Shown: in pieces, positions 3,688 to 64,000 of the stretch
How positions within the stretch are numbered: position 1 is the first letter of the stretch
How the letters are laid out: each line of letters starts with the position of its first letter
The notes under the pieces: model-generated
The model's database searches: none
What the model saw: the letters and a program-made list of their open reading frames with translations, nothing else
What the model was told of the DNA's origin: nothing
Origin: Eledone cirrhosa
Lineage: Eukaryota
Assembly: GCA_964016885.1 (NCBI GenBank)
Contig: OZ024747.1
Coordinates: 61,070,001 to 61,134,000 of the forward strand
DNA: 64,000 nucleotides
Direction of reading: 5' to 3'
Program-made: the position numbers and the translations under genes

Positions 3688-3710
3688 TTATTATTAATAT
3701 TATAATAATA

Positions 3711-10490: not shown

Positions 10491-10494
10491 CTAA

Positions 10495-12040: not shown

Positions 12041-12197
12041 TGTGTGTACATGTATGTTTTTATGTATATATGTGTGTATGTATGCATGTATATATATATA
12101 TATATATATATGTATATGTATGTTTTTTTGTATGTATGCATGTATATATATATATATGTATATGTATGTTTTTATGTATATATGTGTGTATGTATGC

Positions 12198-12926: not shown

Positions 12927-12971
12927 CATCATCATCATACGTCCGCTTTTCCCTGCTTGCAAGGGTAGGAC
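12927..12971 (-). mobile_element. Minimal (~45 bp) element G 3' terminus inserted in (TA)n
   Basis: (CAT)4-ACGTCCGCTTTTCCCTGCTTGCAAGGGTAGGAC aligns with the reverse complement of the satellite module (CATCGTTTAACGTCCCTGTTCCACGCTTGCATGGGT). Confidence 0.7.
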
Positions 12972-17375: not shown

Positions 17376-17396
17376 TGTTTAACATCTATTTCCCAT
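17376..17396 (-). mobile_element. Remnant element G 3' terminus at the junction between the CAT tract and the satellite
   Basis: CATCAT-TGTTTAACATCTATTTCCCAT, compared with CATCAT-CGTTTAACGTCCCTGTTCCAC (module reverse complement) and CAT-TTCATGTCTATTTTCCAT (7283-7303). Confidence 0.65.
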
Positions 17397-20300
17397 AGAG
17401 ACACTGATATGGACATATACACATATATAGAGACACTGATATGGACATATACACATGTATAGAGACATTGATATGGACATATACACATATACAGAGACAC
17501 TGATATGGACATATACACATATATAGAGACATTGATATGAACATATACACATATATAGACATTGATATGAACATATACACATATATAGAGACACTGATAT
17601 GAACATATACACATAAATAGAGACACTGATATGAACATATACACATATATAGAGACACTGATATGGACATATACACATATATAGAGACACTGATATGAAC
17701 ATATACACATATATAGAGACACTGATATGGACATATACACATGTATAGAGACATTGATATGGACATATACACATATACAGAGACACTGATATGGACAGAT
17801 ACACATATATAGAGACATTGATATGAACATATACACATATATAGAGACATTGATAAGGACATATACAAATATATAGAGACATTGATATGGACCTATACAC
17901 ATATATAGACACTGATATAGACATATACACATATATAGAGACACTGATATGGACATATACATATATATAGAGACACTGATATGGACATATACACATATAT
18001 AGAGACATTGATAAGGACATATACACATATATAGACACTGATATGGACATATACACATATATAGAGACACTAATATGGACATATACACATATATAGAGAC
18101 ACTGATATGAACATATATACATATATAGAGACATTGATATGGACATATACACATATATAGAGACACGGATATGGACTTATACACATATATAGAGACATTG
18201 ATATCGACATATACACATATATAGAGACATTGATATGGACATATACACATATATAGAGACACTGATATGGACATATACACATATATAGAGACGTTGATAT
18301 GGACATATACACATATATAGAGACACTGATATGGACATATACACATATATAGAGACAATGATATGGACATATACACATATATATAGACATTGATATGGAC
18401 ATATACACCCATGCAAGCGTGGAACAGGGACGTTAAACGATGATGATGACAAATATATAGAGACATTAATATGAACATAAATACATATATAGAGACATTG
18501 ATATGAACATATACACATACATAGAAACACTGATATGACACACATATATAGAGACACTGATATGGACATATACATATATATAGAGACACTAATATGAACA
18601 TATACACATATATAGAAACACTGATATGAACATATACACATATATAGAGACACTAATATGAACATATACACATATATAGAGACATTGATATGAACATATA
18701 CACATATATAGAGACATTGATATGAACATATACACATATATAGACACAGATACGGACATATACACATGTATAGAGACATTGATATGGACATATACACATA
18801 TATAGAGACACTGATATGGACATATACACATACATAGAGACACTGATATGGACATATACACATATATAGAGACATTGATATGAACATATACACATATATA
18901 GAGATATTGATATGGACATATACACATATATAGAGACACTGATATGGACATATTACACATACATAGAGACACTGATATGGACATATACACATATATAGAG
19001 ACACTGATATGGACATATAGACATATATATAGACATTGATATGGACATATACACCCATGCAAGCGTGGAACAGGGACGTTAAACGATGATGATGATGATG
19101 ATGATGACACATATATAGAGACATTAATATGAACATATATACATATATAGAGACATTGATATGAACATATACACATACATAGAAACACTGATATGAACAT
19201 ATACACATATATAGAGACATTGATATGGACATATACACATATATAGAGACACTAATATGAACATATACACATATATAGAGACATTGATATGGACATATAC
19301 ACATATATAGAGACACTGAAATGAACATATACACATATATACAGACACTGATATGGACATATACACATATATAGAGACACTAATATGAACATATACACAT
19401 ATATAGAGACATTGATATGGACATATACACATATATATAGAGACATTGATATGAACATATACACATATATAGAGACATTGATATGGACATATACACATAC
19501 ATAGAAACACTGATATGAACATATACACATATATAGAGACACTGATATGGACATATACACATATATAGAGACATTGGTATGGACATATACACATATATAG
19601 AGACATTGATATGGACATATACACATATTTAGAGACATTGATATGAACATATACACATATATAGAGACATTGGTATGGACATATACACATATATAGAGAC
19701 ATTGATATGGACATATACACATATTTAGAGACATTGATATGAACATATACACATATATAGAGACACTGATATGGACATATACACATCTATAGAGACATTG
19801 ATATGAACATATACACATATACAGAGACACTAATATGAACATATACACATATATAGAGACATTGATATGGACATATACACATATATATAGAGACATTGAT
19901 ATGAACATATACACATATATAGAGACATTGATATGGACATATACACATCTATAGAGACATTGATATGAACATATACACATATACAGAGACACTGATATGA
20001 ACATATACAAATATATACAGACATTGATATGGACATATACACATATATAGAGACACTGATATGGACATATACACATATATAGACATTGATATGGACATAT
20101 ACACCCATGCAAGCGTGGAACAGGGACGTTAAACGATGATGATGATGATGACACATATATAGAGACATTAATATGAACATATATACATATATAGAGACAT
20201 TGATATGAACATATACACATACATAGAAACACTGATATGAACATATACACATATATAGAGACATTGATATGGACATATACACATATATAGAGACATTGAT

Positions 20301-23300
20301 ATGAACATATACACATATATAGAAACACTGATATGAACATATACACATATATAGAGACACTAATATGTACATATACACATATATAGAGACATTGATATGG
20401 ACATATACACATATATAGAGACATTGATATGGACATATACACATATATAGACACAGATACGGACATATACACATGTATAGAGACATTGATATGGACATAT
20501 ACACATATATAGAGACACTGATATGGACATATACACATACATAGAGACACTGATATGGACATATACACATATATAGAGACATTGATATGAACATATACAC
20601 ATATATAGAGATATTGATATGGACATATACACATATATAGAGACACTGATATGGACATATTACACATACATAGAGACACTGATATGGACATATACACATA
20701 TATAGAGACACTGATATGGACATATAGACATATATATAGACATTGATATGGACATATACACCCATGCAAGCGTGGAACAGGGACGTTAAACGATGATGAT
20801 GATGATGATGATGACACATATATAGAGACATTAATATGAACATATATACATATATAGAGACATTGATATGAACATATACACATACATAGAAACACTGATA
20901 TGAACATATACACATATATAGAGACATTGATATGGACATATACACATATATAGAGACACTAATATGAACATATACACATATATAGAGACATTGATATGGA
21001 CATATACACATATATAGAGACACTGAAATGAACATATACACATATATACAGACACTGATATGGACATATACACATATATAGAGACACTAATATGAACATA
21101 TACACATATATAGAGACATTGATATGGACATATACACATATATATAGAGACATTGATATGAACATATACACATATATAGAGACATTGATATGGACATATA
21201 CACATACATAGAAACACTGATATGAACATATACACATATATAGAGACACTGATATGGACATATACACATATATAGAGACATTGGTATGGACATATACACA
21301 TATATAGAGACATTGATATGGACATATACACATATTTAGAGACATTGATATGAACATATACACATATATAGAGACATTGGTATGGACATATACACATATA
21401 TAGAGACATTGATATGGACATATACACATATTTAGAGACATTGATATGAACATATACACATATATAGAGACACTGATATGGACATATACACATCTATAGA
21501 GACATTGATATGAACATATACACATATACAGAGACACTAATATGAACATATACACATATATAGAGACATTGATATGGACATATACACATATATATAGAGA
21601 CATTGATATGAACATATACACATATATAGAGACATTGATATGGACATATACACATCTATAGAGACATTGATATGAACATATACACATATACAGAGACACT
21701 GATATGAACATATACAAATATATACAGACATTGATATGGACATATACACATATATAGAGACACTGATATGGACATATACACATATATAGACATTGATATG
21801 GACATATACACCCATGCAAGCGTGGAACAGGGACGTTAAACGATGATGATGATGATGACACATATATAGAGACATTAATATGAACATATATACATATATA
21901 GAGACATTGATATGAACATATACACATACATAGAAACACTGATATGAACATATACACATATATAGAGACATTGATATGGACATATACACATATATAGAGA
22001 CATTGATATGAACATATACACATATATAGAAACACTGATATGAACATATACACATATATAGAGACACTAATATGTACATATACACATATATAGAGACATT
22101 GATATGGACATATACACATATATAGAGACATTGATATGGACATATACACATATATAGACACAGATACGGACATATACACATGTATAGAGACATTGATATG
22201 GACATATACACATATATAGAGACACTGATATGGACATATACACATATATAGAGACACTAATATGAACATATACACATATATAGAGACACTAATATGAACA
22301 TATACACATATATAGAGACATTGATATGGACATATACACATATATAGAGACATTGATATGGACATATACACATATATAGAGACATTGATATGGACATATA
22401 CACATATATAGAGACATTGATATGGACATATACACATATATAGAGACACTGATATGGACATATACATATATATAGAGACACTAATATGAACATATACACA
22501 TATATAGAGACACTGATATGGACATATACACATATATAGAGACACTGATATGGACATATACACATATATAGACACAGATACGGACATATACACATATATA
22601 GAGACACGGATATGGACTTATACACATATATAGAGACATTGATATGGACATATACACCCATGCAAGCGTGGAACAGGGACGTTAAACGATGATGATGATG
22701 ATAATGATGACACATATATAGAGACATTAATATGAACATATATACATACATAGAAACACTGATATGAACATATACACATATATAGAGAGACTGATATGGA
22801 CATATACACATATATAGAGACATTGATATGGACATATACACATATATAGAGACACTGATATGGACATATACACATATATAGACATTGATATGGACATATA
22901 CACCCATGCAAGCGTGGAACAGGGACGTTAAACGATGATGATGATGATGACACATATATAGAGACACTGATATGGACATATACACATATATAGAGACACT
23001 AATATGAACATATACACATATATAGACATTGATATGGACATATACACATATATAGAGACATTGATATGAACATATACACATATACAGAGACACTGATATG
23101 AACATATACACATATATACAGACATTGATATGGACATATACACATATATAGAGACACTGATATGGACATATACACATATATAGACATTGATATGGACATA
23201 TACACCCATGCAAGCGTGGAACAGGGACGTTAAAGATGATGATGATGATGACACATATATAGAGACATTAATATGAACATATATACATATATAGAAACAT

Positions 23301-26300
23301 TGATATGAACATATACACATACATAGAAACACTGATATGACATATACACATATATAGAGACACTGATATGGACATATACATATATATAGAGACACTAATA
23401 TGAACATATACACATATATAGAGATATTGATATGGACATATACACATATATAGACATTGATATGGACATATACACATATATAGACACAGATACGGACATA
23501 TACACATGTATAGAGACATTGATATGGACATATACACATATATAGAGACACTGATATGGACATATACACATACATAGAGACACTGATATGGACATATACA
23601 CATATATAGAGACACTGATATGAACATATACACATATATAGAGACATTGATATGGACATATACACATATATAGAGACACGGATATGGACTTATACACATA
23701 TATAGAGACACTGATATGGACATATACACATATATAGAGACACTAATATGAACATATACACATATATAGAGACACTAATATGAACATATACACATATATA
23801 GAGACATTGATATGGACATATACACATATATAGAGACATTGATATGGACATATACACATATATAGAGACACTGATATGGACATATACATATACATAGAGA
23901 CACTAATATGAACATATACACATATATAGAGACACTGATATGGACATATACATATATATAGAGACATTGATATGGACATATACACATATATAGACACAGA
24001 TACGGACATATACACATATATAGAGACACGGATATGGACTTATACACATATATAGAGACATTGATATGGACATATACACCCATGCAAGCGTGGAACAGGG
24101 ACGTTAAACGATGATGATGATGATAATGATGACACATATATAGAGACCTTAATATGAACATATATACATACATAGAAACACTGATATGAACATATACACA
24201 TATATAGAGAGACTGATATGGACATAAACACATATATAGGGAAATTGGTATTGACATATACACATATATAGAGACATTGATATGAACATATACACATATA
24301 TAGAGACACTGATATGGACATATACACATATATAGAGACACTGATATAGACATTGATATGGACATATACACCCATGCAAGCGTGGAACAGGGATGTTAAA
24401 CGATGATGATGATGATGATGATGATGACACATATATAGAGACATTAATATGAACATATATACATATATAGAGACATTGATATGACATATACACATACATA
24501 GAAACACTGATATGACATATACACATATATAGAAACACTGATATGAACATATACACATATATAGAGACACTGATATGAACATATACACATATATAGAGAC
24601 ATTGATATGAACATATACACATATAGAGACACTGATATGGACATATACACATATATAGAGACACTGATATAGACATTGATATGGACATATACACCCATGC
24701 AAGCGTGGAACAGGGATGTTAAACGATCATGATGATGATGATGATGATGATGACACATATATAGAGACATTAATATGAACATATATACATATATAGAGAC
24801 ATTGATATGACATATACACATATATAGAGACACTGATATGGACATATACATATATATAGAGACACTAATATGAACATATACACACATATAGAGACATTGA
24901 TATGTACATATACACATATATAGAGACATTGATATGAACATATACACATATATACAGACATTGATATGGACATATACACATATATATAGACATTGATATG
25001 AACATATACACATATATAGAGACACTATGGACATATACACATACATAGAGACACTGATATGGACATATACACATATATAGAGACATTAATATGAACATAT
25101 ACACATATACAGAGACACTAATATGAACATATACACATATACAGAGACACTAATATGAACATATACACATATATACAGACATTGATATGGACATATACAC
25201 ATATATAGACACTGATATGGACATATACACATATATAGAGACACTAATATGAACATATACACATATACAGAGACACTAATATGAACATATACACATATAT
25301 ACAGACATTGATATGGACATATACACATATATAGAGACACTGATATGGACATATACACCCATGCAAGCGTGGAACAGGGACGTTAAACGATGATGATGAT
25401 GATGATGACGATGACACATATATAGAGACATTGATATGAACATATACACATATATACAGACATTGATATGGACATATACACATATATAGAGACACTGATA
25501 TGGACATATACACATATATAGAGACATTGATATGAACATATACACATATACAGAGACACTGATATGAACATATACACATATATACAGACATTGATATGAA
25601 CATATACACATATATAGAGACACTATGGACATATACACATACATAGAGACACTGATATGGACATATACACATATATAGAGACATTAATATGAACACATAC
25701 ACATATATAGAGACACTGATATGGACATATACACATATATAGAGACACTAATATGAACATATACACATATATAGAGACATTGATATGGACATATACACAT
25801 ATATAGAGACATTGATATGGACATATACACATATATAGAGACATTGATATGAACATATACACATATATACAGACATTGATGTGGACATATACACATATAT
25901 AGAGACACTGATATGGACATATACACCCATGCAAGCGTGGAACAGGGACGTTAAACGATGATAATGATGATGACACATATATAGAGACATTAATATGAAC
26001 ATATACACATATATAGAGACACTAATATGAACATATACACATATATAGAGACATTGATATGGACATATACACATATATAGAGGCATTGATATGAACGTAT
26101 ACACATATACAGAGACACTGATATGAACATATACACATATACAGAGACACTGATATGAACATATACACATATATACAGACATCGATATGGACATATACAC
26201 ATATATAGAGACACTGATATGGACATATACACCCATGCAAGCGTGGAACAGGGACGTTAAACGATGATGATGATGACACATATATAGAGACACTAATATA

Positions 26301-29300
26301 AACATATACACATATATAGAGACACTGATATGGACATATACACATATATAGAGACATTGATATGAACATATATACATATATAGAGACATTGATATGAACA
26401 TATACACATACATAGAAACACTGATATGACATATACACATATATAGAGACACTGATATGGACATATACATATATATAGAGACACTAATATGAACATATAC
26501 ACATATATAGAAACACTGATATGAACATATACACATATATAGAGACATTGATATGAACATATACACATATATAGAGACACTAATATGAACATATACACAT
26601 ATATATAGAGACACTGATATGGACATATACACATATATAGAGACATTGATATGAACATATACACATATACAGAGACACTGATATGAACATATACACATAT
26701 ATACAGACATTGATATGGACATATACACATGTATAGAGACACTGATATGGACATATACACATATATAGAGACATTGATATGAACATAGACACATATACAG
26801 AGACACTGATATGAACATATACACATATATACAGACATTGATATGGACATATACACATATATAGAGACACTGATGTGGACATATACACCCATGCAAGCGT
26901 CGAACAGGGACGTTAAACGATGATGATGATGATGATGATGATGACACATATATAGAGACACTAATATGAACATATACACATATTTAGAGACACTATGGAC
27001 ATATACACATACATAGAGACACTGATATGGACATATACACATATATACAGACATTAATATGAATATATACACATATATAAAGACATTGATATGAACATAG
27101 ACACATATACAGAGACACTTATATGAACATATACACATATATATAGACATTGATATGGACATATACACCCATGCATGCGTAGAACAGGGACGTTAAACGA
27201 TGATGATGATGATAATGATGACACATATATAGAGACATTAATATGAACATATATACATATATAGAGACATTGATATGGACATATACACATATATAGAGAC
27301 ACTGATATGGACATATACACATATATAGAGACACTAATATGAACATATACACATATATAGAGACACTAATATGAACATATACACATATATAGAGACATTG
27401 ATATGGACATATACACATATATAGAGACATTGATATGAACATATACACATATATAGAGACATTGATGTGGACATATACACATATATAGAGACACTGATAT
27501 GGACATATACACCCATGCAAGCGTGGAACAGGGACGTTAAACGATGATGATGATGATGATGATGATGACACATATATAGAGACATTAATATGAACATATA
27601 TACATATATAGAGACATTGATATGAACATATACACATACATAGAAACACTGATATGACATATACACATATATAGAGACACTGATATGGACATATACATAT
27701 ATATAGAGACAATAATATGAACATATACACATATATAGAGACACTAATATGAACATATACACATATATAGAGACATTGATATGTACATATACACATATAT
27801 AGAGACATTGATATGAACATATACACATATATACAGACATTGATATGGACATATACACATATATACAGACATTGATATGAACATATACACATATATAGAG
27901 ACACTATGGACATATACACATACATAGAGACACTGATATGGACATATACACATATATAGAGACATTAATATGAACATATACACATATACAGAGACACTAA
28001 TATGAACATATACACATATACAGAGACACTAATATGAACATATACACATATATACAGACATTGATATGGACATATACACATATATAGACACTGATATGGA
28101 CATATACACATATATAGAGACACTAATATGAACATATACACATATACAGAGACATTGATATGGAGATATACACATATATAGAGACACAGATATGGACATA
28201 TACACCCATGCAAGCGTGGAACAGGGACGTTAAACGATGATGATGATGATGATGACGATGACACATATATAGAGACATTGATATGAACATATACACATAC
28301 ATAGAAACACTGATATGACAAATACACATATATAGAGACACTGATATGAACATATACACATATATAGAAACACTGATATGAACATATACACATATATAGA
28401 GACACTGATATGGACATATACACATATATAGAGACATTGATATGAACATATACACATATATACAGACATTGATATGGACATATACACATATAGAGAGACA
28501 CTGATATGGACATATACACATATATAGAGACATTGATATGAACATATACACATATACAGAGACACTGATATGAACATATACACATATATACAGACATTGA
28601 TATGAACATATACACATATATAGAGACACTATGGACATATACACATACATAGAGACACTGATATGGACATATACACATATATAGAGACATTAATATGAAC
28701 ACATACACATATATAGAGACACTGATATGGACATATACACATATATAGAGACACTAATATGAACATATACACATATATAGAGACACTGATATGGACATAT
28801 ACACATATATAGAGACATTGATATGAACATATACACATATACAGAGACACTGATATGAACATATACACATATATACAGACATTGATATGGACATATACAC
28901 ATATATAGAGACACTGATATGGACATATACACCCATGCAAGCGTGGAACAGGGACGTTAAACGATGATGATGATGATGATGACACATATATAGAGACATT
29001 AATATGAACATATATACATATATAGAGACATTGATATGAACATATACACATACATAGAAACATTGATATGACATATACACATATATAGAGACACTGATAT
29101 GGACATATACGTATATATAGAGACACTAATATGAACATATACACATATATAGAAACACTGATATGAACATATACACATATAGAGACATTGATTTGGACAT
29201 ATACACATATATAGAGACACTAATATGAACATATACACATATATAGAGACATTGATATGGACATATACACATATATAGAGACATTGATATGAACATATAC

Positions 29301-32300
29301 ACATATATACAGACATTGATGTGGACATATACACATATATAGAGACACTGATATGGACATATACACATGTATAGAGACACTGATATGGACATATACACAT
29401 ATATAGAGACATTGATATGTACATATACACATATATAGAGACATTGATATGAACATATACACATATATACAGACATTGATATGGACATATACACATATAT
29501 ACAGACATTGATATGAACATATACACATATATAGAGACACTATGGACATATACACATACATAGAGACACTGATATGGACATATACACATATATAGAGACA
29601 TTAATATGAACATATACACATATACAGAGACACTAATATGAACATATACACATATACAGAGACACTAATATGAACATATACACATATATACAGACATTGA
29701 TATGGACATATACACATATATAGACACTGATATGGACATATACACATATATAGAGACACTAATATGAACATATACACATATACAGAGACACTAATATGAA
29801 CATATACACATATATACAGACATTGATATGGAGATATACACATATATAGAGACACAGATATGGACATATACACCCATGCAAGCGTGGAACAGGGACGTTA
29901 AACGATGATGATGATGATGATGACGATGACACATATATAGAGACATTGATATGAACATATACACATACATAGAAACACTGATATGACAAATACACATATA
30001 TAGAGACACTGATATGAACATATACACATATAAAGAAACACTGATATGAACATATACACATATATAGAGACACTGATATGGACATATACACATATATAGA
30101 GACATTGATATGAACATATACACATATATACAGACATTGATATGGACATATACACATATAGAGAGACACTGATATGGACATATACACATATATAGAGACA
30201 TTGATATGAACATATACACATATACAGAGACACTGATATGAACATATACACATATATACAGACATTGATATGAACATATACACATATATAGAGACACTAT
30301 GGACATATACACATACATAGAGACACTGATATGGACATATACACATATATAGAGACATTAATATGAACACATACACATATATAGAGACACTGATATGGAC
30401 ATATACACATATATAGAGACACTAATATGAACATATACACATATATAGAGACACTGATATGGACATATACACATATATAGAGACATTGATATGAACATAT
30501 ACACATATACAGAGACACTGATATGAACATATACACATATATACAGACATTGATATGGACATATACACATATATAGAGACACTGATATGGACATATACAC
30601 CCATGCAAGCGTGGAACAGGGACGTTAAACGATGATGATGATGATGATGACACATATATAGAGACATTAATATGAACATATATACATATATAGAGACATT
30701 GATATGAACATATACACATACATAGAAACACTGATATGACATATACACATATATAGAGACACTGATATGGACATATACGTATATATAGATACACTAATAT
30801 CAACATATACACATATATAGAAACACTGATATGAACATATACACATATAGAGACATTGATGTGGACATATACACATATATAGAGACATTGATATGAACAT
30901 ATACACATATATAGAGACACTAATATGAACATATACACATATATAGAGACATTGATATGGACATATACACATATATAGAGGCATTAATATGAACGTATAC
31001 ATATATACAGAGACACTGATATGAACATATACACATATACAGAGACACTGATATGAACATATACACATATATACAGACATCGATATGGACATATACACAT
31101 ATATAGAGACACTGATATGGACATATACACCCATGCAAGCGTGGAACAGGGACGTTAAACGATGATGATGATGATGATGACACATATATAGAGACACTAA
31201 TATAAACATATACACATATATAGAGACACTGATATGGACATATACACATATATAGAGACATTGATATGGACATATACACAAATATAGAGACACTGATATG
31301 GACATATAGACCCATGCAAGCGTGGAACAGGGACGTTAAACGATGATGATGATGATGATGACACATATATAGACATTAATATGAACATATATACATATAT
31401 AGAGACATTGATATGAACATATACACATACATAGAAACACTGATATGACATATACACATATATAGAGACACTGATATGGACATATACATATATATAGAGA
31501 CACTGATATGAACATATACACATATATACAGACATCGATATGGACATATACACATATATAGAGACATTGATATGAACATATACACATATATAGAGACACT
31601 GATATGGACATATACACATATATAGAGACATTGATATGAACATATACACATATACAGAGACACTGATATGAACATATACACATATATACAGACATTGATA
31701 TGGACATATACACATATATAGAGACACTGATATGGACATATACACCCATGCAAGCGTGGAACAGGGACGTTAAACGATGATGATGATGATGATGACACAT
31801 ATATAGAGACACTAATATGAACATATACACATATTTAGAGACACTATGGACATATACACATACATAGAGACACTGATATGGACATATACACATATATACA
31901 GACATTAATATGAATATATACACATATATAGAGACATTGATATGAACATATACACATATACAGAGACACTGATATGAACATATACACAGATATACAGACA
32001 TTGATCTGGACATATACACATATATAGAGACGTTGATATGAACATATACACATATTTAGAGACACTATGGACATATACACATACATAGAGACACTGATAT
32101 GGACATATACACATATATACAGACGTTAATATGAATATATACACATATATAGAGACATTGATATGAACATATACACATGTACAGAGACACTGATATGAAC
32201 ATATACACATATATACAGACATTGATATGGACATATACACATATATAGAGACATTGATATGAACATATACACATATATAGAGACACTATGGACATATACA

Positions 32301-35300
32301 CATACATAGAGACACTGATATGGACATATACACATATATAGAGACATTAATATGAACATATACACATATACAGAGACACTAATATGAACATATACACATA
32401 TACAGAGACACTAATATGAACATATACACATATATACAGACATTGATATGGACATATACACATATATAGACACTGATATGGACATATACACATATATAGA
32501 GACACTAATATGAACATATACACATATACAGAGACACTAATATGAACATATACACATATATACAGACATTGATATGGAGATATACACATATATAGAGACA
32601 CTGATATGGACATATACACCCATGCAAGCGTGGAACAGGGACGTTAAACGATGATGATGATGATGATGACGATGACACATATATAGAGACATTGATATGA
32701 ACATATACACATACATAGAAACACTGATATGACAAATACACATATATAGAGACACTGATATGAACATATACACATATATAGAAACACTGATATGAACATA
32801 TACACATATATAGAGACACTGATATGGACATATACACATATATAGAGACATTGATATGAACATATACACATATATACAGACATTGATATGGACATATACA
32901 CATATAGAGAGACACTGATATGGACATATACACATATATAGAGACATTGATATGAACATATACACATATACAGAGACACTGATATGAACATATACACATA
33001 TATACAGACATTGATATGAACATATACACATATATAGAGACACTATGGACATATACACATACATAGAGACACTGATATGGACATATACACATATATAGAG
33101 ACATTAATATGAACACATACACATATATAGAGACACTGATATGGACATATACACATATATAGAGACACTAATATGAACATATACACATATATAGAGACAC
33201 TGATATGGACATATACACATATATAGAGACATTGATATGAACATATACACATATACAGAGACACTGATATGAACATATACACATATATACAGACATTGAT
33301 ATGGACATATACACATATATAGAGACACTGATATGGACATATACACCCATGCAAGCGTGGAACAGGGACGTTAAACGATGATGATGATGATGATGACACA
33401 TATATAGAGACATTAATATGAACATATATACATATATAGAGACATTGATATGAACATATACACATACATAGAAACACTGATATGACATATACACATATAT
33501 AGAGACACTGATATGGACATATACATATATATAGAGACACTAATATGAACATATACACATATATAGAAACACTGATATGAACATATACACATATATAGAG
33601 ACATTGAGATGAACATATACACATATATAGAGACACTAATATGAACATATACACATATATAGAGACACTGATATGGACATATACACATATATAGAGACAT
33701 TGATATGAACATATACACATATACAGAGACACTGATATGAACATATACACATATATACAGACATTGATATGGACATATACACATATATAGAGACACTGAT
33801 ATGGACATATACACCCATGCAAGCGTGGAACAGGGACTTTAAACGATGATGATGATGATGATGACACATATATAGAGACACTAATATGAACATATACACA
33901 TATTTAGAGACACTATGGACATATACACATACATAGAGACACTGATATGGACATATACACATATATACAGACATTAATATGAATATATACACATATACAG
34001 AGACACTGATATGAACATATACACAGATATACAGACATTGATCTGGACATATACACATATATAGAGACATTGATATGAACATATACACATATTTAGAGAC
34101 ACTATGGACATATACACATACATAGAGACACTGATATGGACATATACACATATATACAGACGTTAATATGAATATATACACATATATAGAGACATTGATA
34201 TGAACATATACACATATACAGAGACACTGATATAAACATATACACATATATACAGACATTGATATGGACATATACACATATATAGAGACATTGATATGAA
34301 CATATACACATATATAGAGACACTATGGACATATACACATACATAGAGACACTGATATGGACATATACACATATATAGAGACATTAATATGAATACATAC
34401 ACATATATAAAGACATTGATATGAACATAGACACATATACAGAGACACTTATATCAACATATACACATATATATAGACATTGATATGGACATATACACCC
34501 ATGCATGCGTAGAACATGGACGTTAAACGATGATGATGATGATAATGATGACACATATATAGAGACATTAATATGAACATATATACATATATAGAGACAT
34601 TGATATGGACATATACACATATATAGAGACACTGATATGGACATATACACATATATAGAGACACTAATATGAACATATACACATATATAGAGACACTAAT
34701 ATGAACATATACACATATATAGAGACATTGATATGGACATATACACATATATAGAGACATTGATATGAACATATACACATATATAGAGACATTGATGTGG
34801 ACATATACACATATATAGAGACACTGATATGGACATATAGACCCATGCAAGCGTGGAACAGGGACGTTAAACGATGATGATGATGATGATGATGATGATG
34901 ACACATATATAGAGACATTAATATGAACATATATACATATATAGAGAAATTGATATGAACATATACACATACATAGAAACACTGATATGACATATACACA
35001 TATATAGAGACACTGATATGGACATATACATATATATAGAGACAATAATATGAACATATACACATATATAGAGACACTAATATGAACATATACACATATA
35101 TAGAGACATTGATATGGACATATACACATATATACAGACATTGATATGGACATATACACATATATACAGACATTGATATGAACATATACACATATATAGA
35201 GACACTATGGACATATACACATACATAGAGACACTGATATGGACATATACACATATATAGAGACATTAATATGAACATATACACATATACAGAGACACTA

Positions 35301-47300: not shown

Positions 47301-50300
47301 ATATATAGAGACACTGATATGGACATATACACCCATGCAAGCGTGGAACAGGGACGTTAAACGATGATGATGATGATGATGACACATATATAGAGACATT
47401 AATATGAACATATATACATATATAGAGACATTGATATGAACATATACACATACATAGAAACACTGATATGACATATACACATATATAGAGACACTGATAT
47501 GGACATATACATATATATAGAGACAATAATATGAACATATACACATATATAGAGACACTAATATGAACATATACACATATATAGAGACATTGATATGGAC
47601 ATATACACATATATAGAGACATTGATATGAACATATACACATATACAGAGACACTGATATGAACATATACACATATATACAGACATTGATATGGACATAT
47701 ACACATATATACAGACATTGATATGAACATATACACATATATAGAGACACTATGGACATATACACATACATAGAGACACTGATATGGACATATACACATA
47801 TATAGAGACATTAATATGAACATATACACATATACAGAGACACTAATATGAACATATACACATATATACAGACATTGATATGGACATATACACATACATA
47901 GAAACACTGATATGACATTTACACATATATAGAGACACTGATATGGACATATACACCCATGCAAGCGTGGAACAGGGACGTTAAACGATGATGATGATGA
48001 TGATGACGATGACACATATATAGAGACATTGATATGAACATATACACATACATAGAAACACTGATATGACAAATACACATATATAGAGACACTGATATGA
48101 ACATATACACATATATAGAAACACTGATATGAACATATACACATATATAGAGACATTGTTATGAACATATACACATATATAGAGACACTGATATGGACAT
48201 ATACACATATATAGAGACATTGATATGAACATATACACATAAATACAGATATTGATATGGACATATACACATATATAGAGACACTGATATGGACATATAC
48301 ACATATATAGAGACATTGATATGAACATATACACATATACAGAGACACTGATATGAACATATACACATATATACAGACATTGATATGAACATATACACAT
48401 TATAGAGACACTATGGACATATACACATACATAGAGACACTGATATGGACATATACACATATATAGAGACATTAATATGAACATATACACATATATAGAG
48501 ACATTGATATGGACATATACACATATATAGAGACACTGATATGGACATATACACATATATAGAGACACTGATATGGACATATACACATATATAGAGACAC
48601 TAATATGAACATATACACATATATAGAAACACTGATATGAACATATACACATATATAGAGACATTGATATGGACAGATACACATATATAGAGACATTGAT
48701 ATGAACATATACACATATACAGAGACACTGATATGAACATATACACATATATACAGACATTGATATGGACATATACACATATATAGAGACACTGATATGG
48801 ACATATACACCCATGCAAGCGTGGAACAGGGATGTTAAACGATGATGATGATGATGATGACACATATATAGAGACATTAATATGAACATATATACATATA
48901 TAGAGACATTGATATGAACATATGCACATACATAGAAACACTGATATGATATATACACATATATAGAGACACTGATATGGACATATACGTATATATAGAG
49001 ACACTAATATGAACATATACACATATATAGAAACACTGATATGAACATATATACATATATAGAGACATTGATATGAACATATACACATATATAGAGACAT
49101 TGATATCAACATATACACATATAGAGACATTGATATGGACATATACACATATATAGAGACACTAATATGAACATATACACATATATAGAGACACTAATAT
49201 GAACATATACACATATATAGAGACATTGATATGGACATATACACATATATATAGAGACATTGATATGAACATATACACATATATACAGACATTGATGTGG
49301 ACATATACACATATATAGAGACACTGATATGGACATATACACCCATGCAAGCGTGGAACAGGGACGTTAAACGATGATGATGATGATGATGATGACACAT
49401 ATATAGAGACACTAATATAAACATATACACATATATAGAGACATTGATATGAACATATACACATATACAGAGACACTGATATGAACATATATACAGACAT
49501 TGATATGGACATATACACATATATAGAGACACTGATATGGACATATAGACCCATGCAAGCGTGGAACAGGGACGTTAAACGATGATGATGATGATGATGA
49601 CACATATATAGACATTAATATGAACATATATACATATATAGAGACATTGATATGAACATATACACATACATAGAAACACTGATATGACATATACACATAT
49701 ATAGAGACACTGATATGGACATATACATATATATAGAGACACTAATATGAACATATACACATATATAGAAACACTGATATGAACATATACACATATATAG
49801 AGACATTGATATGAACATATACACATATACAGAGACACTGATATGAACATATACACATATATACAGACATTGATATGGACATATACACATATATAGAGAC
49901 ACTGATATGGACATATACACCCATGCAAGCGTGGAACAGGGACGTTAAACGATGATGATGATGATGATGATGACGATGACACATATATAGAGACACTAAT
50001 ATGAACATATACACATATTTAGAGACACTATGGACATATACACATACATAGAGACACTGATATGGACATATACACATATATACAGACATTAATATGAATA
50101 TATACACATATATAGAGACATTGATATGAACATATACACATATACAGAGACACTGATATGAACATATACACAGATATACAGACATTGATATGGACATATA
50201 CACATATATAGAGACATTGATATGAACATATACACATATTTAGAGACACTATGGACATATACACATACATAGAGACACTGATATGGACATATACACATAT

Positions 50301-53300
50301 ATACAGACATTAATATGAATATATACACATATATAGAGACATTGATATGAACATATACACATATACAGAGACACTGATATGAACATATACACATATATAC
50401 AGACATTGATATGGACATATACACATATATAGAGACATTGATATGAACATATACACATATATAGAGACACTATGGACATATACACATACATAGAGACACT
50501 GATATGGACATATACACATATATAGAGACATTAATATGAATATATACATATATACAGAGACACTGATATGAACATATACACATATATACAGACATTGATA
50601 TGGACATATACACATATATAGAGACACTGATATGGACATATACACCCATGCAAGCGTGGAACAGGGACGTTGAACGATGATGATGATGATGATGACACAT
50701 ATATAGACATTAATATGAACATATATACATATATAGAGACATTGATATGAACATATACACATACATAGATACACATATATAGAGACACTGATATGGACAT
50801 ATACATATATATAGACAGTAATATGAACATATACACATATATAGAGACATTGATATGAACATATACACATATATAGAGACACTAATATGAACATATACAC
50901 ATATATAGAGAGATTGATTGGGACATATACACATATATAGAGACACTGATATGGACATATACACATATATAGAGACATTGATATGAACATATACACATAT
51001 ACAGAGACACTGATATGAACATATACACATATATACAGACATTGATATGAACATATACACATTATAGAGACACTATGGACATATACACATACATAGAGAC
51101 ACTGATATGGACATATACACATATATAGAGACATTAATATGAACATATACACATATATAGAGACATTGATATGGACATATACACATATATAGAGACACTG
51201 ATATGGACATATACACATATATAGAGACACTGATATGGACATATACACATATATAGAGACACTAATATGAACATATACACATATATAGAAACACTGATAT
51301 GAACATATACACATATATAGAGACATTGATATGGACATATACACATATATAGAGACATTGATATGAACATATACACATATACAGAGACACTGATATGAAC
51401 ATATACACATATTTAGAGACACTATGGACATATACACATACATAGAGACACTGATATGGTCATATACACATATATAGAGACATTGATATGAACATATACA
51501 CATATATAGAGACACTGATATGGACATATACACATATATAGAGACACTGATATTAACATATACACATATATAGAGACATTGATATGGACATATACACATA
51601 TATAGAGACATGGATATGGACTTATACACATATATAGAGACATTGATATGGACATATACACATATATAGAGACATTGATATGGACATATACACATATATA
51701 GAGACATTGATATGGACATAAACACATATATAGAGTCATTGATATGAACATAGACACATATACAGAGACACTTATATGAACATATACACATATATATAGA
51801 CATTGATATGGACATATACACCCATGCATGCGTGGAACAGGGACGTTAAACGATGATGATGATGATAATGATGACACATATATAGAGACATTAATATGAA
51901 CATATATACATATATAGAGACATTGATATGAACATGTACACATACATAGAAACACTGATATGAACATATACACATATATAGAGACACTGATTTGGACATA
52001 TACACATATATAGAGACACTAATATGAACATATACACATATATAGAGACATTGATATGGACATATACACATATATAGAGACATTGATATGAACATATACA
52101 CATATATAGAGACATTGATGTGGACATATACACATATATAGAGACACTGATATGGACATATACACCCATGCAAGCGTGGAACAGGGACGTTAAACGATGA
52201 TGATGATGATGATGACACATATATAGAGACATTAATATGAACATATATACATATATAGAGACATTGATATGAACATATACACATACATAGAAACACTGAT
52301 ATGACATATACACATATATAGAGACACTGATATGGACATATACATATATATAGAGACAATAATATGAACATATACACATATATAGAGACACTAATATGAA
52401 CATATACACATATATAGAGACATTGATATGGACATATACACATATATAGAGACATTGATATGAACATATACACATATACAGAGACACTGATATGAACATA
52501 TACACATATATACAGACATTGATATGGACATATACACATATATACAGACATTGATATGAACATATACACATATATAGAGACACTATGGACATATACACAT
52601 ACATAGAGACACTGATATGGACATATACACATATATAGAGACATTAATATGAACATATACACATATACAGAGACACTAATATGAACATATACACATATAT
52701 ACAGACATTGATATGGACATATACACATACATAGAAACACTGATATGACATATACACATATATAGAGACACTGATATGGACATATACACCCATGCAAGCG
52801 TGGAACAGGGACGTTAAACGATGATGATGATGATGATGACGATGACACATATATAGAGACATTGATATGAACATATACACATACATAGAAACACTGATAT
52901 GACAAATACACATATATAGAGACACTGATATGAACATATACACATATATAGAAACACTGATATGAACATATACACATATATAGAGACATTGTTATGAACA
53001 TATACACATATATAGAGACACTGATATGGACATATACACATATATAGAGACATTGATATGAACATATACACATAAATACAGATATTGATATGGACATATA
53101 CACATATATAGAGACACTGATATGGACATATACACATATATAGAGACATTGATATGAACATATACACATATACAGAGACACTGATATGAACATATACACA
53201 TATATACAGACATTGATATGAACATATACACATTATAGAGACACTATGGACATATACACATACATAGAGACACTGATATGGACATATACACATATATAGA

Positions 53301-56300
53301 GACATTAATATGAACATATACACATATATAGAGACATTGATATGGACATATACACATATATAGAGACACTGATATGGACATATACACATATATAGAGACA
53401 CTGATATGGACATATACACATATATAGAGACACTAATATGAACATATACACATATATAGAAACACTGATATGAACATATACACATATATAGAGACATTGA
53501 TATGGACATATACACATATATAGAGACATTGATATGAACATATACACATATACAGAGACACTGATATGAACATATACACATATATACAGACATTGATATG
53601 GACATATACACATATATAGAGACACTGATATGGACATATACACCCATGCAAGCGTGGAACAGGGATGTTAAACGATGAGGATGATGATGATGACACATAT
53701 ATAGAGACATTAATATGAACATATATACATATATAGAGACATTGATATGAACATATGCACATACATAGAAACACTGATATGATATATACACATATATAGA
53801 GACACTGATATGGACATATACGTATATATAGAGACACTAATATGAACATATACACATATATAGAAACACTGATATGAACATATATACATATATAGAGACA
53901 TTGATATGAACATATACACATATATAGAGACATTGATATGAACATATACACATATAGAGACATTGATATGGACATATACACATATATAGAGACACTAATA
54001 TGAACATATACACATATATAGAGACACTAATATGAACATATACACATATATAGAGACATTGATATGGACATATACACATATATATAGAGACATTGATATG
54101 AACATATACACATATATACAGACATTGATGTGGACATATACACATATATAGAGACACTGATATGGACATATACACCCATGCAAGCGTGGAACAGGGACGT
54201 TAAACGATGATGATGATGATGATGACACATATATAGACATTAATATGAACATATATACATATATAGAGACATTGATATGAACATATACACATACATAGAA
54301 ACACTGATATGACATATACACATATATAGAGACACTGATATGGACATATACATATATATAGAGACACTAATATGAACATATACACATATATAGAAACACT
54401 GATATGAACATATACACATATATAGAGACATTGATATGAACATATACACATATACAGAGACACTGATATGAACATATACACATATATACAGACATTGATA
54501 TGGACATATACACATATATAGAGACACTGATATGGACATATACACCCATGCAAGCGTGGAACAGGGACGTTAAACGATGATGATGATGATGATGATGACG
54601 ATGACACATATATAGAGACACTAATATGAACATATACACATATTTAGAGACACTATGGACATATACACATACATAGAGACACTGATATGGACATATACAC
54701 ATATATACAGACATTAATATGAATATATACACATATATAGAGACATTGATATGAACATATACACATATACAGAGACACTGATATGAACATATACACAGAT
54801 ATACAGACATTGATATGGACATATACACATATATAGAGACATTGATATGAACATATACACATATTTAGAGACACTATGGACATATACACATACATAGAGA
54901 CACTGATATGGACATATACACATATATACAGACATTAATATGAATATATACACATATATAGAGACATTGATATGAACATATACACATATACAGAGACACT
55001 GATATGAACATATACACATATATACAGACATTGATATGGACATATACACATATATAGAGACATTGATATGAACATATACACATATATAGAGACACTATGG
55101 ACATATACACATACATAGAGACACTGATATGGACATATACACATATATAGAGACATTAATATGAATATATACATATATACAGAGACACTGATATGAACAT
55201 ATACACATATATACAGACATTGATATGGACATATACACATATATAGAGACACTGATATGGACATATACACCCATGCAAGCGTGGAACAGGGACGTTGAAC
55301 GTTGATGATGATGATGATGACACATATATAGACATTAATATGAACATATATACATATATAGAGACATTGATATGAACATATACACATACATAGATACACA
55401 TATATAGAGACACTGATATGGACATATACATATATATAGACAGTAATATGAACATATACACATATATAGAGACATTGATATGAACATATACACATATATA
55501 GCGACACTAATATGAACATATACACATATATAGAGAGATTGATTGGGACATATACACATATATAGAGACATTGATATGAACATATTCACATATACAGAGA
55601 CACTGATATGAACATATACACATATATACAGACATTGATATGGACATATACACATATATAGAGACATTGATATGAACATATACACATATATAGAGACACT
55701 ATGGACATATACACATACATAGAGACACTTATATGGACATATACACATATATAGAGACATTAATATGAACATATACACATATATAGAGACACTGATATGA
55801 ACATATACACATATATACAGACATTGATATGGACATATACACATATATAGAGACATTGATATGAACATATACACATATATAGAGACACTGATATGGACAT
55901 ATACACATAAATAGAGACACTGATATGGACATATACATATATATAGAGACACTAATATGAACATATACACATATATAGAGACACTGATATGAACATATAC
56001 ACATATATACAGACATTGATATGGACATATACACATATATAGAGACATTGATATGAACATATACACATATATAGAGACACTGATATGGACATATACACAT
56101 ATATAGAGACACTGATATGGACATATACATATATATAGAGACACTAATATGAACATATACACATATATAGAGACACTGATATATACATATACACATATAT
56201 ACAGACATTGATATGGACATATACACATATATAGAGACATTGATATGAACATATACACATATATAGAGACACTGATATGGACATATACACATATATAGAG

Positions 56301-59300
56301 ACACTGATATTAACATATACACATATATAGAGACATTGATATGGACATATACACATATATAGAGACATGGATATGGACTTATACACATATATAGAGACAT
56401 TGATATGGACATATACACATATATAGAGACATTGATATGGACATATACACATATATAGAGACATTGATATGGACATAAACACATATATAGAGTCATTGAT
56501 ATGAACATAGACACATATACAGAGACACTTATATGAACATATACACATATATATAGACATTGATATGGACATATACACCCATGCATGCGTGGAACAGGGA
56601 CGTTAAACGATGATGATGATGATAATGATGACACATATATAGAGACATTAATATGAACATATATACATATATAGAGACATTGATATGAACATGTACACAT
56701 ACATAGAAACACTGATATGAACATATACACATATATAGAGACACTGATTTGGACATATACACATATATAGAGACACTAATATGAACATATACACATATAT
56801 AGAGACATTGATATGGACATATACACATATATAGAGACATTGATATGAACATATACACATATATAGAGACATTGATGTGGACATATACACATATATAGAG
56901 ACACTGATATGGACATATACACCCATGCAAGCGTGGAACAGGGACGTTAAACGATGATGATGATGATGATGACACATATATAGAGACATTAATATGAACA
57001 TATATACATATATAGAGACATTGATATGAACATATACACATACATAGAAACACTGATATGACATATACACATATATAGAGACACTGATATGGACATATAC
57101 ATATATATAGAGACAATAATATGAACATATACACATATATAGAGACACTAATATGAACATATACACATATATAGAGACATTGATATGGACATATACACAT
57201 ATATAGAGACATTGATATGAACATATACACATATACAGAGACACTGATATGAACATATACACATATATACAGACATTGATATGGACATATACACATATAT
57301 ACAGACATTGATATGAACATATACACATATATAGAGACACTATGGACATATACACATACATAGAGACACTGATATGGACATATACACATATATAGAGACA
57401 TTAATATGAACATATACACATATACAGAGACACTAATATGAACATATACACATATACAGAGACACTAATATGAACATATACACATATATACAGACATTGA
57501 TATGGACATATACACATACATAGAAACACTGATATGACATATACACATATATAGAGACACTGATATGGACATATACATAAATATAGAGACACTAATATGA
57601 ACATATACACATATATAGAAACACTGATATGAACATATACACATATATAGAGACATTGATATGAACATATACACATATATAGAGACACTAATATGAACAT
57701 ATACACATATATAGAGACATTGATATGAACATATACACATATACAGAGACACTGATATGAACATATACACATATATAGAGACACTGATATGGACATATAC
57801 ACCCATGCAAGCGTGGAACAGGGACGTTAAACGATGATGATGATGATGACACATATATAGAGACATTAATATGAACATATACACATATACAGAGACACTG
57901 ATATGAACATATACACATATATACAGACATTGATATGGACATATACACATATATAGAGACATTGATATGAACATATACACATATATAGAGACACTATGGA
58001 CATATACACATACATAGAGACACTGATATGGACATATACACATATATAGAGACATTAATATGAATATATACATATATACAGAGACACTGATATGAACATA
58101 TACACAGATATACAGACATTGATATGGACATATACACATATATATAGACATTGATATGGACATATACACCCACGCTAGCGTGGAACAGGGACGTTAAATG
58201 ATGATGATGATGACGATGACACATATATAGAGACACTAATATAAACATATACACATATATAGAGACACTGATATGGACATATACACATATATAGAGACAT
58301 TGATATGAACATATACACATATACAGAGACACTGATATGAACATATACACATATATACAGACATTGATATGGACATATACACATATATAAAGACACTGAT
58401 ATGGACATATACACCCATGCAAGCGTGGAACAGGTACGTTGAACGATGATGATGATGATGATGACACATATATAGACATTAATATGAACATATATACATA
58501 TATAGAGACATTGATATGAACATATACACATACATAGATACACATATATAGAGACACTGATATGGACATATACATATATATAGACAGTAATATGAACATA
58601 TACACATATATAGAGACATTGATATGAACATATACACATATATAGAGACACTAATATGAACATATACACATATATAGAGAGATTGATTGGGACATATACA
58701 CATATATAGAGACATTGATATGAACATATTCACATATACAGAGACACTGATATGAACATATACACATATATACAGACATTGATATGGACATATACACATA
58801 TATAGAGACATTGATATGAACATATACACATATATAGAGACACTATGGACATATACACATACATAGAGACACTTATATGGACATATACACATATATAGAG
58901 ACATTAATATGAACATATACACATATATAGAGACACTGATATGAACATATACACATATATACAGACATTGATATGGACATATACACATATATAGAGACAT
59001 TGATATGAACATATACACATATATAGAGACACTGATATGGACATATACACATAAATAGAGACACTGATATGGACATATACATATATATAGAGACACTAAT
59101 ATGAACATATACACATATATAGAGACACTGATATGAACATATACACATATATACAGACATTGATATGGACATATACACATATATAGAGACATTGATATGA
59201 ACATATACACATATATAGAGACACTGATATGGACATATACACATATATAGAGACACTGATATGGACATATACATATATATAGAGACACTAATATGAACAT

Positions 59301-62300
59301 ATACACATATATAGAGACACTGATATATACATATACACATATATACAGACATTGATATGGACATATACACATATATAGAGACATTGATATGAACATATAC
59401 ACATATATAGAGACACTGATATGGACATATACACATATATAGAGACACTGATATTAACATATACACATATATAGAGACATTGATATGGACATATACACAT
59501 ATATAGAGACATGGATATGGACTTATACACATATATAGAGACATTGATATGGACATATACACATATATAGAGACATTGATATGGACATATACACATATAT
59601 AGAGACATTGATATGGACATAAACACATATATAGAGTCATTGATATGAACATAGACACATATACAGAGACACTTATATGAACATATACACATATATATAG
59701 ACATTGATATGGACATATACACCCATGCATGCGTGGAACAGGGACGTTAAACGATGATGATGATGATAATGATGACACATATATAGAGACATTAATATGA
59801 ACATATATACATATATAGAGACATTGATATGAACATGTACACATACATAGAAACACTGATATGAACATATACACATATATAGAGACACTGATTTGGACAT
59901 ATACACATATATAGAGACACTAATATGAACATATACACATATATAGAGACATTGATATGGACATATACACATATATAGAGACATTGATATGAACATATAC
60001 ACATATATAGAGACATTGATGTGGACATATACACATATATAGAGACACTGATATGGACATATACACCCATGCAAGCGTGGAACAGGGACGTTAAACGATG
60101 ATGATGATGATGATGACACATATATAGAGACATTAATATGAACATATATACATATATAGAGACATTGATATGAACATATACACATACATAGAAACACTGA
60201 TATGACATATACACATATATAGAGACACTGATATGGACATATACATATATATAGAGACAATAATATGAACATATACACATATATAGAGACACTAATATGA
60301 ACATATACACATATATAGAGACATTGATATGGACATATACACATATATAGAGACATTGATATGAACATATACACATATACAGAGACACTGATATGAACAT
60401 ATACACATATATACAGACATTGATATGGACATATACACATATATACAGACATTGATATGAACATATACACATATATAGAGACACTATGGACATATACACA
60501 TACATAGAGACACTGATATGGACATATACACATATATAGAGACATTAATATGAACATATACACATATACAGAGACACTAATATGAACATATACACATATA
60601 CAGAGACACTAATATGAACATATACACATATATACAGACATTGATATGGACATATACACATACATAGAAACACTGATATGACATATACACATATATAGAG
60701 ACACTGATATGGACATATACATAAATATAGAGACACTAATATGAACATATACACATATATAGAAACACTGATATGAACATATACACATATATAGAGACAT
60801 TGATATGAACATATACACATATATAGAGACACTAATATGAACATATACACATATATAGAGACATTGATATGAACATATACACATATACAGAGACACTGAT
60901 ATGAACATATACACATATATAGAGACACTGATATGGACATATACACCCATGCAAGCGTGGAACAGGGACGTTAAACGATGATGATGATGATGACACATAT
61001 ATAGAGACATTAATATGAACATATACACATATACAGAGACACTGATATGAACATATACACATATATACAGACATTGATATGGACATATACACATATATAG
61101 AGACATTGATATGAACATATACACATATATAGAGACACTATGGACATATACACATACATAGAGACACTGATATGGACATATACACATATATAGAGACATT
61201 AATATGAATATATACATATATACAGAGACACTGATATGAACATATACACAGATATACAGACATTGATATGGACATATACACATATATATAGACATTGATA
61301 TGGACATATACACCCACGCTAGCGTGGAACAGGGACGTTAAATGATGATGATGATGACGATGACACATATATAGAGACACTAATATAAACATATACACAT
61401 ATATAGAGACACTGATATGGACATATACACATATATAGAGACATTGATATGAACATATACACATATACAGAGACACTGATATGAACATATACACATATAT
61501 ACAGACATTGATATGGACATATACACATATATAAAGACACTGATATGGACATATACACCCATGCAAGCGTGGAACAGGTACGTTGAACGATGATGATGAT
61601 GATGATGACACATATATAGACATTAATATGAACATATATACATATATAGAGACATTGATATGAACATATACACATACATAGATACACATATATAGAGACA
61701 CTGATATGGACATATACATATATATAGACAGTAATATGAACATATACACATATATAGAGACATTGATATGAACATATACACATATATAGAGAGATTGATT
61801 GGGACATATACACATATATAGAGACATTGATATGAACATATACACATATACAGAGACACTGATATGAACATATACACATATATACAGACATTGATATGGA
61901 CATATACACATATATAGAGACATTGATATGAACGTATACACATATATAGAGACACTATGGACATATACACATACATAGAGACACTGATATGGACATATAC
62001 ACATATATAGAGACATTAATATGAACATATACACATATATAGAGACACTGATATGAACATATACACATATATACAGACATTGATATGGACATATACACAT
62101 ATATAGAGACATTGATATGAACATATACACATATATAGAGACACTGATATGGACATATACACATATATAGAGACACTGATATGGACATATACATATATAT
62201 AGAGACACTAATATGAACATATACACATATATAGAGACACTGATATGAACATATACACATATATACAGACATTGATATGGACATATACACATATATAGAG

Positions 62301-64000
62301 ACATTGATATGAACATATACACATATATAGAGACACTGATATGGACATATACACATATATAGAGACACTGATATGGACATATACATATATATAGAGACAC
62401 TAATATGAACATATACACATATATAGAGACACTGATATATACATATACACATATATACAGACATTGATATGGACATATACACATATATAGAGACATTGAT
62501 ATGAACATATACACATATATAGAGACACTGATATGGACATATACACATATATAGAGACACTGATATTAACATATACACATATATAGAGACATTGATATGG
62601 ACATATACACATATATAGAGACATGGATATGGACTTATACACATATATAGAGACATTGATATGGACATATACACATATATAGAGACATTGATATGGACAT
62701 AAACACATATATAGAGTCATTGATATGAACATAGACACATATACAGACACACTTATATGAACATATACACATATATATAGACATTGATATGGACATATAC
62801 ACCCATGCATGCGTGGAACAGGGACGTTAAACGATGATGATGATGATAATGATGACACATATATAGAGACATTAATATGAACATATATACATATATAGAG
62901 ACATTGATATGAACATGTACACATACATAGAAACACTGATATGAACATATACACATATATAGAGACACTGATATGAACATATACACATATATAGAGACAT
63001 TGATGTGGACATATACACATATATAGAGACACTGATATGGACATATACACCCATGCAAGCGTGGAACAGGGACGTTAAACGATGATGATGATGATGATGA
63101 TGATGACACATATATAGAGACATTAATATGAACATATATACATATATAGAGACATTGATATGAACATATACACATACATAGAAACACTGATATGACATAT
63201 ACACATATATAGAGACACTGATATGGACATATACATATATATAGAGACAATAATATGAACATATACACATATATAGAGACACTAATATGAACATATACAC
63301 ACATATAGAGACATTGATATGTACATATACACATATATAGAGACATTGATATGAACATATACACATATATACAGACATTGATATGGACATATACACATAT
63401 ATACAGACATTGATATGAACATATACACATATATAGAGACACTATGGACATATACACATACATAGAGACACTGATATGGACATATACACATATATAGAGA
63501 CATTAATATGAACATATACACATATACAGAGACACTAATATGAACATATACACATATACAGAGACACTAATATGAACATATACACATATATACAGACATT
63601 GATATGGACATATACACATATATAGACACTGATATGGACATATACACATATATAGAGACACTAATATGAACATATACACATATACAGAGACACTAATATG
63701 AACATATACACATATATACAGACATTGATATGGAGATATACACATATATAGAGACACAGATATGGACATATACACCCATGCAAGCGTGGAACAGGGACGT
63801 TAAACGATGATGATGATGATGATGACACATATATAGAGACATTGATATGAACATATACACATACATAGAAACACTGATATGACAAATACACATATATAGA
63901 GACACTGATATGAACATATACACATATATAGAAACACTGATATGAACATATACACATATATAGAGACACTGATATGGACATATACACATATATAGAGACA
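17395..64000. repeat. Large 32-bp satellite array (>46 kb, roughly 1,350 monomers estimated from length), continuing past the window end
   Basis: Monomer AGAGACA(C/T)T(G/A)ATATG(G/A)ACATATACACATATAT, with 29-34-bp indel variants, in a single orientation throughout. Confidence 0.99.
18408..63824 (+). repeat. Interspersed module CCCATGCAAGCGTGGAACAGGGACGTTAAAC(GAT)n, about 75-80 copies within the satellite; span runs from the first to the last copy
   Basis: First copy at 18408-18448, then about 19053, 20103, 20761, 21811, ... 63050, 63775. It always lies between GGACATATA(C/G)AC and ACACATATAT-type flanks. Confidence 0.97.

Follow-up and report, generated by a model that had tools for sequence, protein, structure and literature searches.

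How does the 3' end of a retrotransposon come to lie, many times over and always at the same site, within an array of short tandem repeats? The question is raised by a stretch of 64,000 nucleotides from Eledone cirrhosa (assembly GCA_964016885.1, contig OZ024747.1, positions 61,070,001 to 61,134,000 of the forward strand), called the window in what follows, in which a tandem array of a 32-bp monomer is interrupted at irregular intervals by a 31-nt module with a (GAT)n tail. The module is the last 31 nt, together with the tail, of a ∼4-kb RTE-like long interspersed nuclear element (LINE), and the 169 modules of the complete array very probably descend from one abortive insertion of this element that was copied passively as the minisatellite grew to 101 kb. 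The features on which the argument turns are as follows.

17395..64000, + strand: 32-bp tandem array, a single-locus minisatellite, continuing past the window to G000:C7:61,188,570
17395..18407, + strand: left end of the array, without modules; once-only monomer types 25%, as against 2% in the interior
18408..63805, + strand: span of the 78 modules of the window, each made up of the terminal 31 nt of the LINE and a (GAT)n tail
19054..19084, + strand: example of a module, with the same sequence as the 3' end of a dispersed LINE subfamily
19055..19068, + strand: inner 5-bp hairpin with a 4-nt loop, the sole part of the parent stem-loop that the module can still form
19085..19106, + strand: (GAT)n tail, of a length that varies between modules
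19051..19054, + strand: left ACAC of the apparent target duplication; its last two bases also fit the parent (microhomology)
19107..19110, + strand: right ACAC of the apparent target duplication; its first base also fits the tail

The array and its modules

Allowing up to 3 mismatches, we find 78 matches to the module in the window, all on the + strand, as compared with none in 100 shuffled sequences. Of the 78 modules, 72 are preceded by the same 14 nt and the remaining 6 by a version with one base changed, and the 14 nt that follow the tail are identical in 75. Successive modules are separated by 181-1308 bp, with a mean of 589 bp, and the first is preceded by 1,013 bp of array. The initial annotation, which reported some 75-80 copies at one fixed register, an irregular spacing of about 180-1300 bp with a mean near 600 bp and a first kilobase free of modules, is thus borne out by the counts. 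The ACAC duplication that it described at the insertion site is present as well; it counts, however, as only 1-4 bp because the left AC and the right A also fit the parent element.

With the neighbouring stretches added, the array extends 54.6 kb beyond the window and measures 101,176 bp in all (G000:C7:61,087,395-61,188,570), comprising ∼2,820 monomers, about 1 in 17 of which carries a module, and 169 modules, a count that depends on one assembly. The commonest module form is shared by 104 of the 169, and the module-free stretch at the far end, 2,353 bp, is the counterpart of the 1,013 bp on the left. All 1,003 exact matches to the monomer in the 3.0-Gb genome fall inside the array on contig C7, as do all 2,166 matches obtained with up to 2 mismatches. 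With a unit of between 10 and 100 bp, one locus and variant units that are interspersed, the array is a single-locus minisatellite and not a genome-wide centromeric repeat. The sequence of the region contains no N, and one contig from sequencing run X4 crosses the left junction (79 and 31 letters on the two sides, 3 differences, depth 3.7); a contig from run X1 with just 30 letters on the left side was left uncounted. Two restriction-site-associated DNA (RAD) runs gave no junction reads and are uninformative, and a unique flank was recovered in none of the 4 runs, so that depth is uncalibrated. Searches of the open-access literature brought up no description of this array. The array is bordered on the left by a 3.4-kb (CAT/CAC)n tract (window 14002-17375) and on the right by a shorter, oppositely oriented (GGT/GAT)n tract (L066, about 4570-5150).

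Descent of the modules

The modules have in common not only their two junctions but also the monomers on either side. A G variant of the host monomer is found at 168 of the 169 modules, as compared with 959 of 2,651 other monomers; an A variant of the next monomer likewise follows 168 of 169 modules (1,339 of 2,651 other monomers), and a rare monomer type comes after 101 of the 169 although it accounts for only 99 of the 2,651 elsewhere. Two monomers taken at equal offsets from their modules have a probability of identity of 0.29 and 0.18 when next to the module and of 0.06-0.16 farther away on both sides, relative to 0.04 overall. Since both junctions and the linked flanking variants are shared, descent of the modules from one insertion, duplicated at the level of DNA, is likely.

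The duplications themselves can be seen as near-exact copies of 5,148, 5,118, 3,346 and 2,968 bp, and of smaller size, in which series of module variants recur. The ends of the array are richer in unique 120-mers than the middle and thus less homogenised. Modules diverge from their commonest letters by 1.6% and dispersed copies of the element by 1.7% (82 of 89 copies, 7 with indel-inflated counts having been dropped), and it is therefore likely that expansion of the array is about as old as the LINE subfamily and later than its origin. In 23% of cases a near-exact repeat ends close to a module, as against 14% for random positions; a reading of the module as a recombination hotspot was nevertheless set aside because changes in tail length break exact matches at modules.

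Within the module 14 of the 31 sites vary and nucleotide diversity is 0.030 per site, compared with 0.019 and 0.001 per site in the adjacent 11 and 13 nt and 0.084 in the whole monomer pool. The module is thus no more conserved than its linked flanks, and the earlier suggestion of a constrained protein-binding box finds no support in these values. There are 19 module variants and many tail lengths across the array, and variants that break the hairpin occur. Changes that alter the hairpin are seen at window 58169-58199 and 61313-61343 and also at 39521 and other positions: two linked ones, present in 7 modules, make a perfect 14-bp palindrome of the imperfect hairpin, and a further one, in 17 modules, halves the hairpin mismatch. 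Such changes could have arisen in DNA through correction by template switching, or else by conversion with other subfamilies as the source.

In the sequence of events that we favor, target-primed reverse transcription on a TA-rich monomer would have stopped just past the hairpin, and microhomology of 1-2 bases would have served for the joining. The duplications would then have come about by replication slippage or unequal exchange, after the LINE subfamily arose, and the module would be a neutral passenger that marks the history of the array. The severe 5' truncation, capture and amplification with the satellite that had been proposed are supported by the short dispersed stubs described below, the shared junctions and the linked flanks. 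As a natural tracer the module indicates that most of the 101-kb array postdates a young LINE subfamily and grew from the middle outwards, and it is the datable nature of the single insertion that makes the duplication history readable. The finding establishes neither a new route for satellite movement nor a new centromere motif.

The parent LINE and its terminal hairpin

For a 26-nt word from the module the 3.0-Gb genome gives 559 exact matches, of which 107 fall within the array and the other 452 are dispersed; for a degenerate pattern of the 3' end the number is at least 41,591. In order to characterize the element we have used the first 100 exact dispersed matches among those listed, all on contigs C1 and C2. 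The dispersed copies share a 3' untranslated region (UTR) of ∼470 nt, followed upstream by an open reading frame (ORF) region with an endonuclease, a reverse transcriptase (RT) and, located after the RT domain, a weak PHD-like finger. In copy L075 consecutive ORF pieces match Exo_endo_phos_2 (1.5e-8) and RVT_1 (1.6e-11 and 3.4e-15), and in L179 two consecutive domain pieces lie in one frame. The Pfam matches of three ORF pieces include no RNase H family; RTE-clade LINEs are not known to carry an RNase H domain, and the C-terminal motif is one that we take to resemble RTE. We use the label RTE-like because the features fit those of the clade. Public relatives of the ORF, of ∼1,050 aa and with the same domains, are ∼50% identical, and no named reference element is found among them. 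An origin from a retroposon 3' end, as initially put forward, is thus upheld by the exact dispersed matches, which run into LINE UTR and ORF. That proposal had left the choice between a LINE and a partner short interspersed nuclear element (SINE); the parent is the LINE itself, and no SINE is needed. A SINE partner was considered as the source of the module and rejected, in that the 5' ends of the 100 exact copies are scattered, with no common head, and the copies run into the LINE UTR and ORF.

Four of the 100 copies start together ∼4.0 kb upstream, at what would be the full-length start, and all 5 long copies that were read are broken by stops or frameshifts. Copies longer than 300 nt have a mean identity to L179 of 96.6%, which suggests a young family. 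The copies have (GAT)n tails, scattered 5' ends and a median length of 750 nt. Target duplications of RTE-clade LINEs typically measure about 6-12 bp; of 97 copies examined here, 51 lie within simple repeats, 27 have no duplication and 19 have one of 6-28 bp, many of these still TA-rich; a TA-like microsatellite follows 70 of the 100 copies, and the family favors (TA)n-like targets. The 3' UTR contains an internal repeat of 112 bp, present between 1 and 6 times (59 longer copies; L006, L008, L014, L169 and L207), and L149 is a copy joined upstream to an inverted piece of itself, like a 5' inversion.

The end of the parent is predicted to fold in two parts, an outer stem of 5 bp enclosing an inner hairpin, likewise of 5 bp, with an energy not beyond that of shuffled sequences (z -0.6 to -1.2). 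Across 20 ends the inner helix is 99% paired, and in a sister family both bases of one pair have changed, a result that is partly circular because the extraction pattern fixed several of the paired bases; the outer helix is out of register in the sister family. The predictions thus point, with the same circularity, to a conserved stem-loop before the tail. In the module only the inner 5 bp can pair, truncation having removed the 5' arm of the outer stem, and the fold has an energy of -6.5 kcal/mol as compared with -16 kcal/mol for the parent end, and when flanks are added the hairpin is absent from the best predicted fold. The module has lost half of the outer stem, so that the parent stem-loop is no longer complete. 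The initial annotation had speculated that RT-recognition ends would recur along satellite transcripts; of the two-part stem of the parent, just the inner hairpin is left in the module.

Among the 100 dispersed copies 6 measure no more than 38 nt (29-38 nt, with differing 5' ends) and none measures 39-79 nt. TATA-flanked truncations number 93 of 11,338 at the base of the hairpin and 15 of 8,607 some 30 nt upstream (odds ratio 4.7, p 7e-11), a test that is based on a single control position and on TA-flanked copies. Reverse-strand counts were used because the array is entirely forward and forward counts repeat overlapping starts. We have read 23 TATA-flanked hairpin-base stubs individually, and one dispersed stub, L118, has a left junction that resembles that of the module. 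Hairpin-plus-tail stubs are an ordinary product of the parent LINE, and the base of the terminal hairpin is probably a hotspot for truncation, enriched ∼5-fold. The excess is a testable clue to the stalling of such reverse transcriptases.

Alternative explanations, known systems and neighboring elements

Several observations weigh against the reading as one LINE insertion that was passively copied. The modules make up 8.7% of the array yet contain 493 of its 592 CpGs (83%), which is not what pure neutrality would suggest. The closest pair of modules in the whole array is 181 bp apart, so that there is no gap under five monomers, whereas random placement predicts ∼38 gaps of four monomers or fewer; this minimum spacing may be explained by the size of the duplication unit. 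At 1-4 bp the target duplication is below the 10-12 bp peak of RTE elements (PMC4245944), and the founding event could therefore have been repair-templated instead of a direct insertion. Finally, some of the near-exact kilobase duplications could be products of assembly over-expansion.

The uneven distribution of CpGs in an otherwise CpG-poor array, the spacing minimum and the presence in each module of a 31-mer identical to the LINE are also what might be expected if a single insertion were now kept or spaced by function, whether as a box bound by protein, as a seed for methylation or as a target of small RNAs. We regard this as unlikely, given the higher diversity of the module relative to its linked flanks, the hairpin-breaking variants and the irregular spacing. 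A repeat on one chromosome only can, moreover, be no general centromere repeat. The CENP-B box is a short, GC-richer, CpG-bearing motif found at one register in a subset of alpha satellite monomers. The module resembles it as a short, GC-richer and CpG-bearing motif at one register in a subset of monomers. It differs in being an insertion, in its irregular spacing, in a level of conservation that does not exceed that of its flanks and in the confinement of the repeat to one locus. It is similarly doubtful that LINE-directed small RNAs and silencing act on the array, or arise from it, by virtue of its LINE-identical 31-mers and CpGs, with stubs seeded by hairpin aborts. That most modules are due to assembly over-expansion of a much smaller array is very unlikely: near-exact duplications of up to 5 kb do lie in the array middle and public sequencing runs did not validate its length, but 115 of 168 inter-module segments are distinct, variants of module and tail are numerous, the region is free of N and the contig of another run spans the left junction.

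An annotation-based proposal that satellite pieces are retro-mobilised, with transcripts that end in a module serving as templates for the LINE machinery and the copies going to other loci or back into the array, draws on the inner hairpin and tail that the module has kept, on the youth suggested for the LINE family and on the stem-loop that is a recognised signal in two zebrafish L2 elements (PMC4176376). Matches to a 32-nt junction are, however, all inside the array (142 of 142 exact, 169 of 169 with up to 3 mismatches), as are those to the monomer, and with the satellite confined to one locus there are no retro-mobilised orphans in this assembly. A 26-nt junction pattern gives 171 matches as against 169 local ones, the 2 unlocated extras vanishing with a longer pattern, and for the right junction the counts are 142 and 141, the one outside match being to the tail of a sister family that lies in TA-rich DNA. 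If pieces were re-inserted into the array, moreover, the downstream monomer would be randomised, but it is linked in 168 of 169 cases; the module is without the 5' arm of the outer stem; and the 169 array ends are 0.4% of the at least 41,591 such ends in the genome. We consider the proposal exceedingly improbable. The chance that many LINE copies inserted independently at one preferred monomer site is smaller still and close to negligible. The family does favor TA-rich targets, its copies tend to be cut short at the base of the hairpin, and L118 provides a dispersed stub with a similar left junction, but just 6 of 100 dispersed copies are so short and their 5' ends differ, whereas in the array the truncation point is common to all modules, with flanks linked on both sides. 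The array contains no longer LINE copy (no tail is found outside a module), and the module variant is a minor one, with 452 of at least 41,591 ends.

Descent from one insertion places the module array as a further case, unusually clean, of a known mechanism, closest to crossover-duplicated truncated R2 copies and to transposon-derived tandem repeats. In Drosophila ribosomal DNA (rDNA) 5'-truncated R2 insertions are duplicated by unequal crossover, 335 of 386 truncations being single-copy owing to selection on the rDNA units (PMC3542110). Here as there, a truncated non-LTR (long terminal repeat) insertion in a tandem array is recognised by its unique 5' truncation, and copying through exchange is likely for the module as well; unlike the R2 case, one truncation is present at 169 copies, the array is a non-coding minisatellite and the element is not site-specific. 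Tandem repeats derived from transposons include the common cetacean satellite (L1 3' part), chicken HinfI (CR1) and mouse Ms6-hm (MaLR) (PMC9659126). LINE 3' sequence amplified within a tandem repeat is common to these and the present array, but in those repeats the monomer itself is element-derived while our 32-bp monomer is without a LINE match, the stub being a guest.

Microsatellite tails and 3'-only copies are known for RTE-clade LINEs (PMC2887409; octopus RTE-2_OV, PMC9115989; RTE features were also drawn from PMC3747384). The parent LINE resembles these in its one long ORF region with endonuclease and RT, its simple-repeat tail and its many truncated copies, and differs in a ∼470-nt 3' UTR with a 112-bp repeat, the PHD-like finger and the (TA)n target bias. 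Sequences of RTE-2_OV are stated as not reported in PMC13282606, and the LINE motif has no match in the 8 supplementary files of PMC9115989 that were searched.

The initial annotation had matched the module to three dispersed copies within the window itself. They are relatives but not the parent; the exact parent is located elsewhere in the genome.

11819..12047, - strand: older truncated relative of the parent LINE, 82-91% to L179; 24/31 to the module
7250..7616, - strand: old diverged relative of the LINE 3' end, 69% to L179; 22/31 to the module; runs into a 48-bp array
12927..12968, - strand: separate stub from a sister LINE family, again hairpin plus tail, within (TA)n; 23/31 to the module

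The 48-bp array (window 7421-9166, 36.5 copies) matches the LINE-family 3' UTR on the minus strand (75-80% over ∼100 bp) and is a second minisatellite, in this case derived directly from a LINE; similar arrays at L067:3593-5762 and L066:9654-9998 are suggested by ORF listings. No host gene was found around the main array, the 73 of 164 flanking ORFs that were scanned giving transposase and LINE domains only, and Rfam gave no match in window 1-22000. The repeat landscape is reminiscent of octopod genomes. Downstream of the array there are broken hAT-type (DUF4371, dimerisation domain) and mariner-type transposase fragments (L067:7013-8990, L069:2639-2872). A dispersed element of ∼190 bp, SINE-like by eye, occurs in both orientations at window 3340-3540, 3710-3900, 4095-4280, 9860-10015 and 13130-13315, and local minisatellites of 47, 56, 84 and 19 bp are found at window 1-504, 882-1156, 2303-2934 and 9641-10849.

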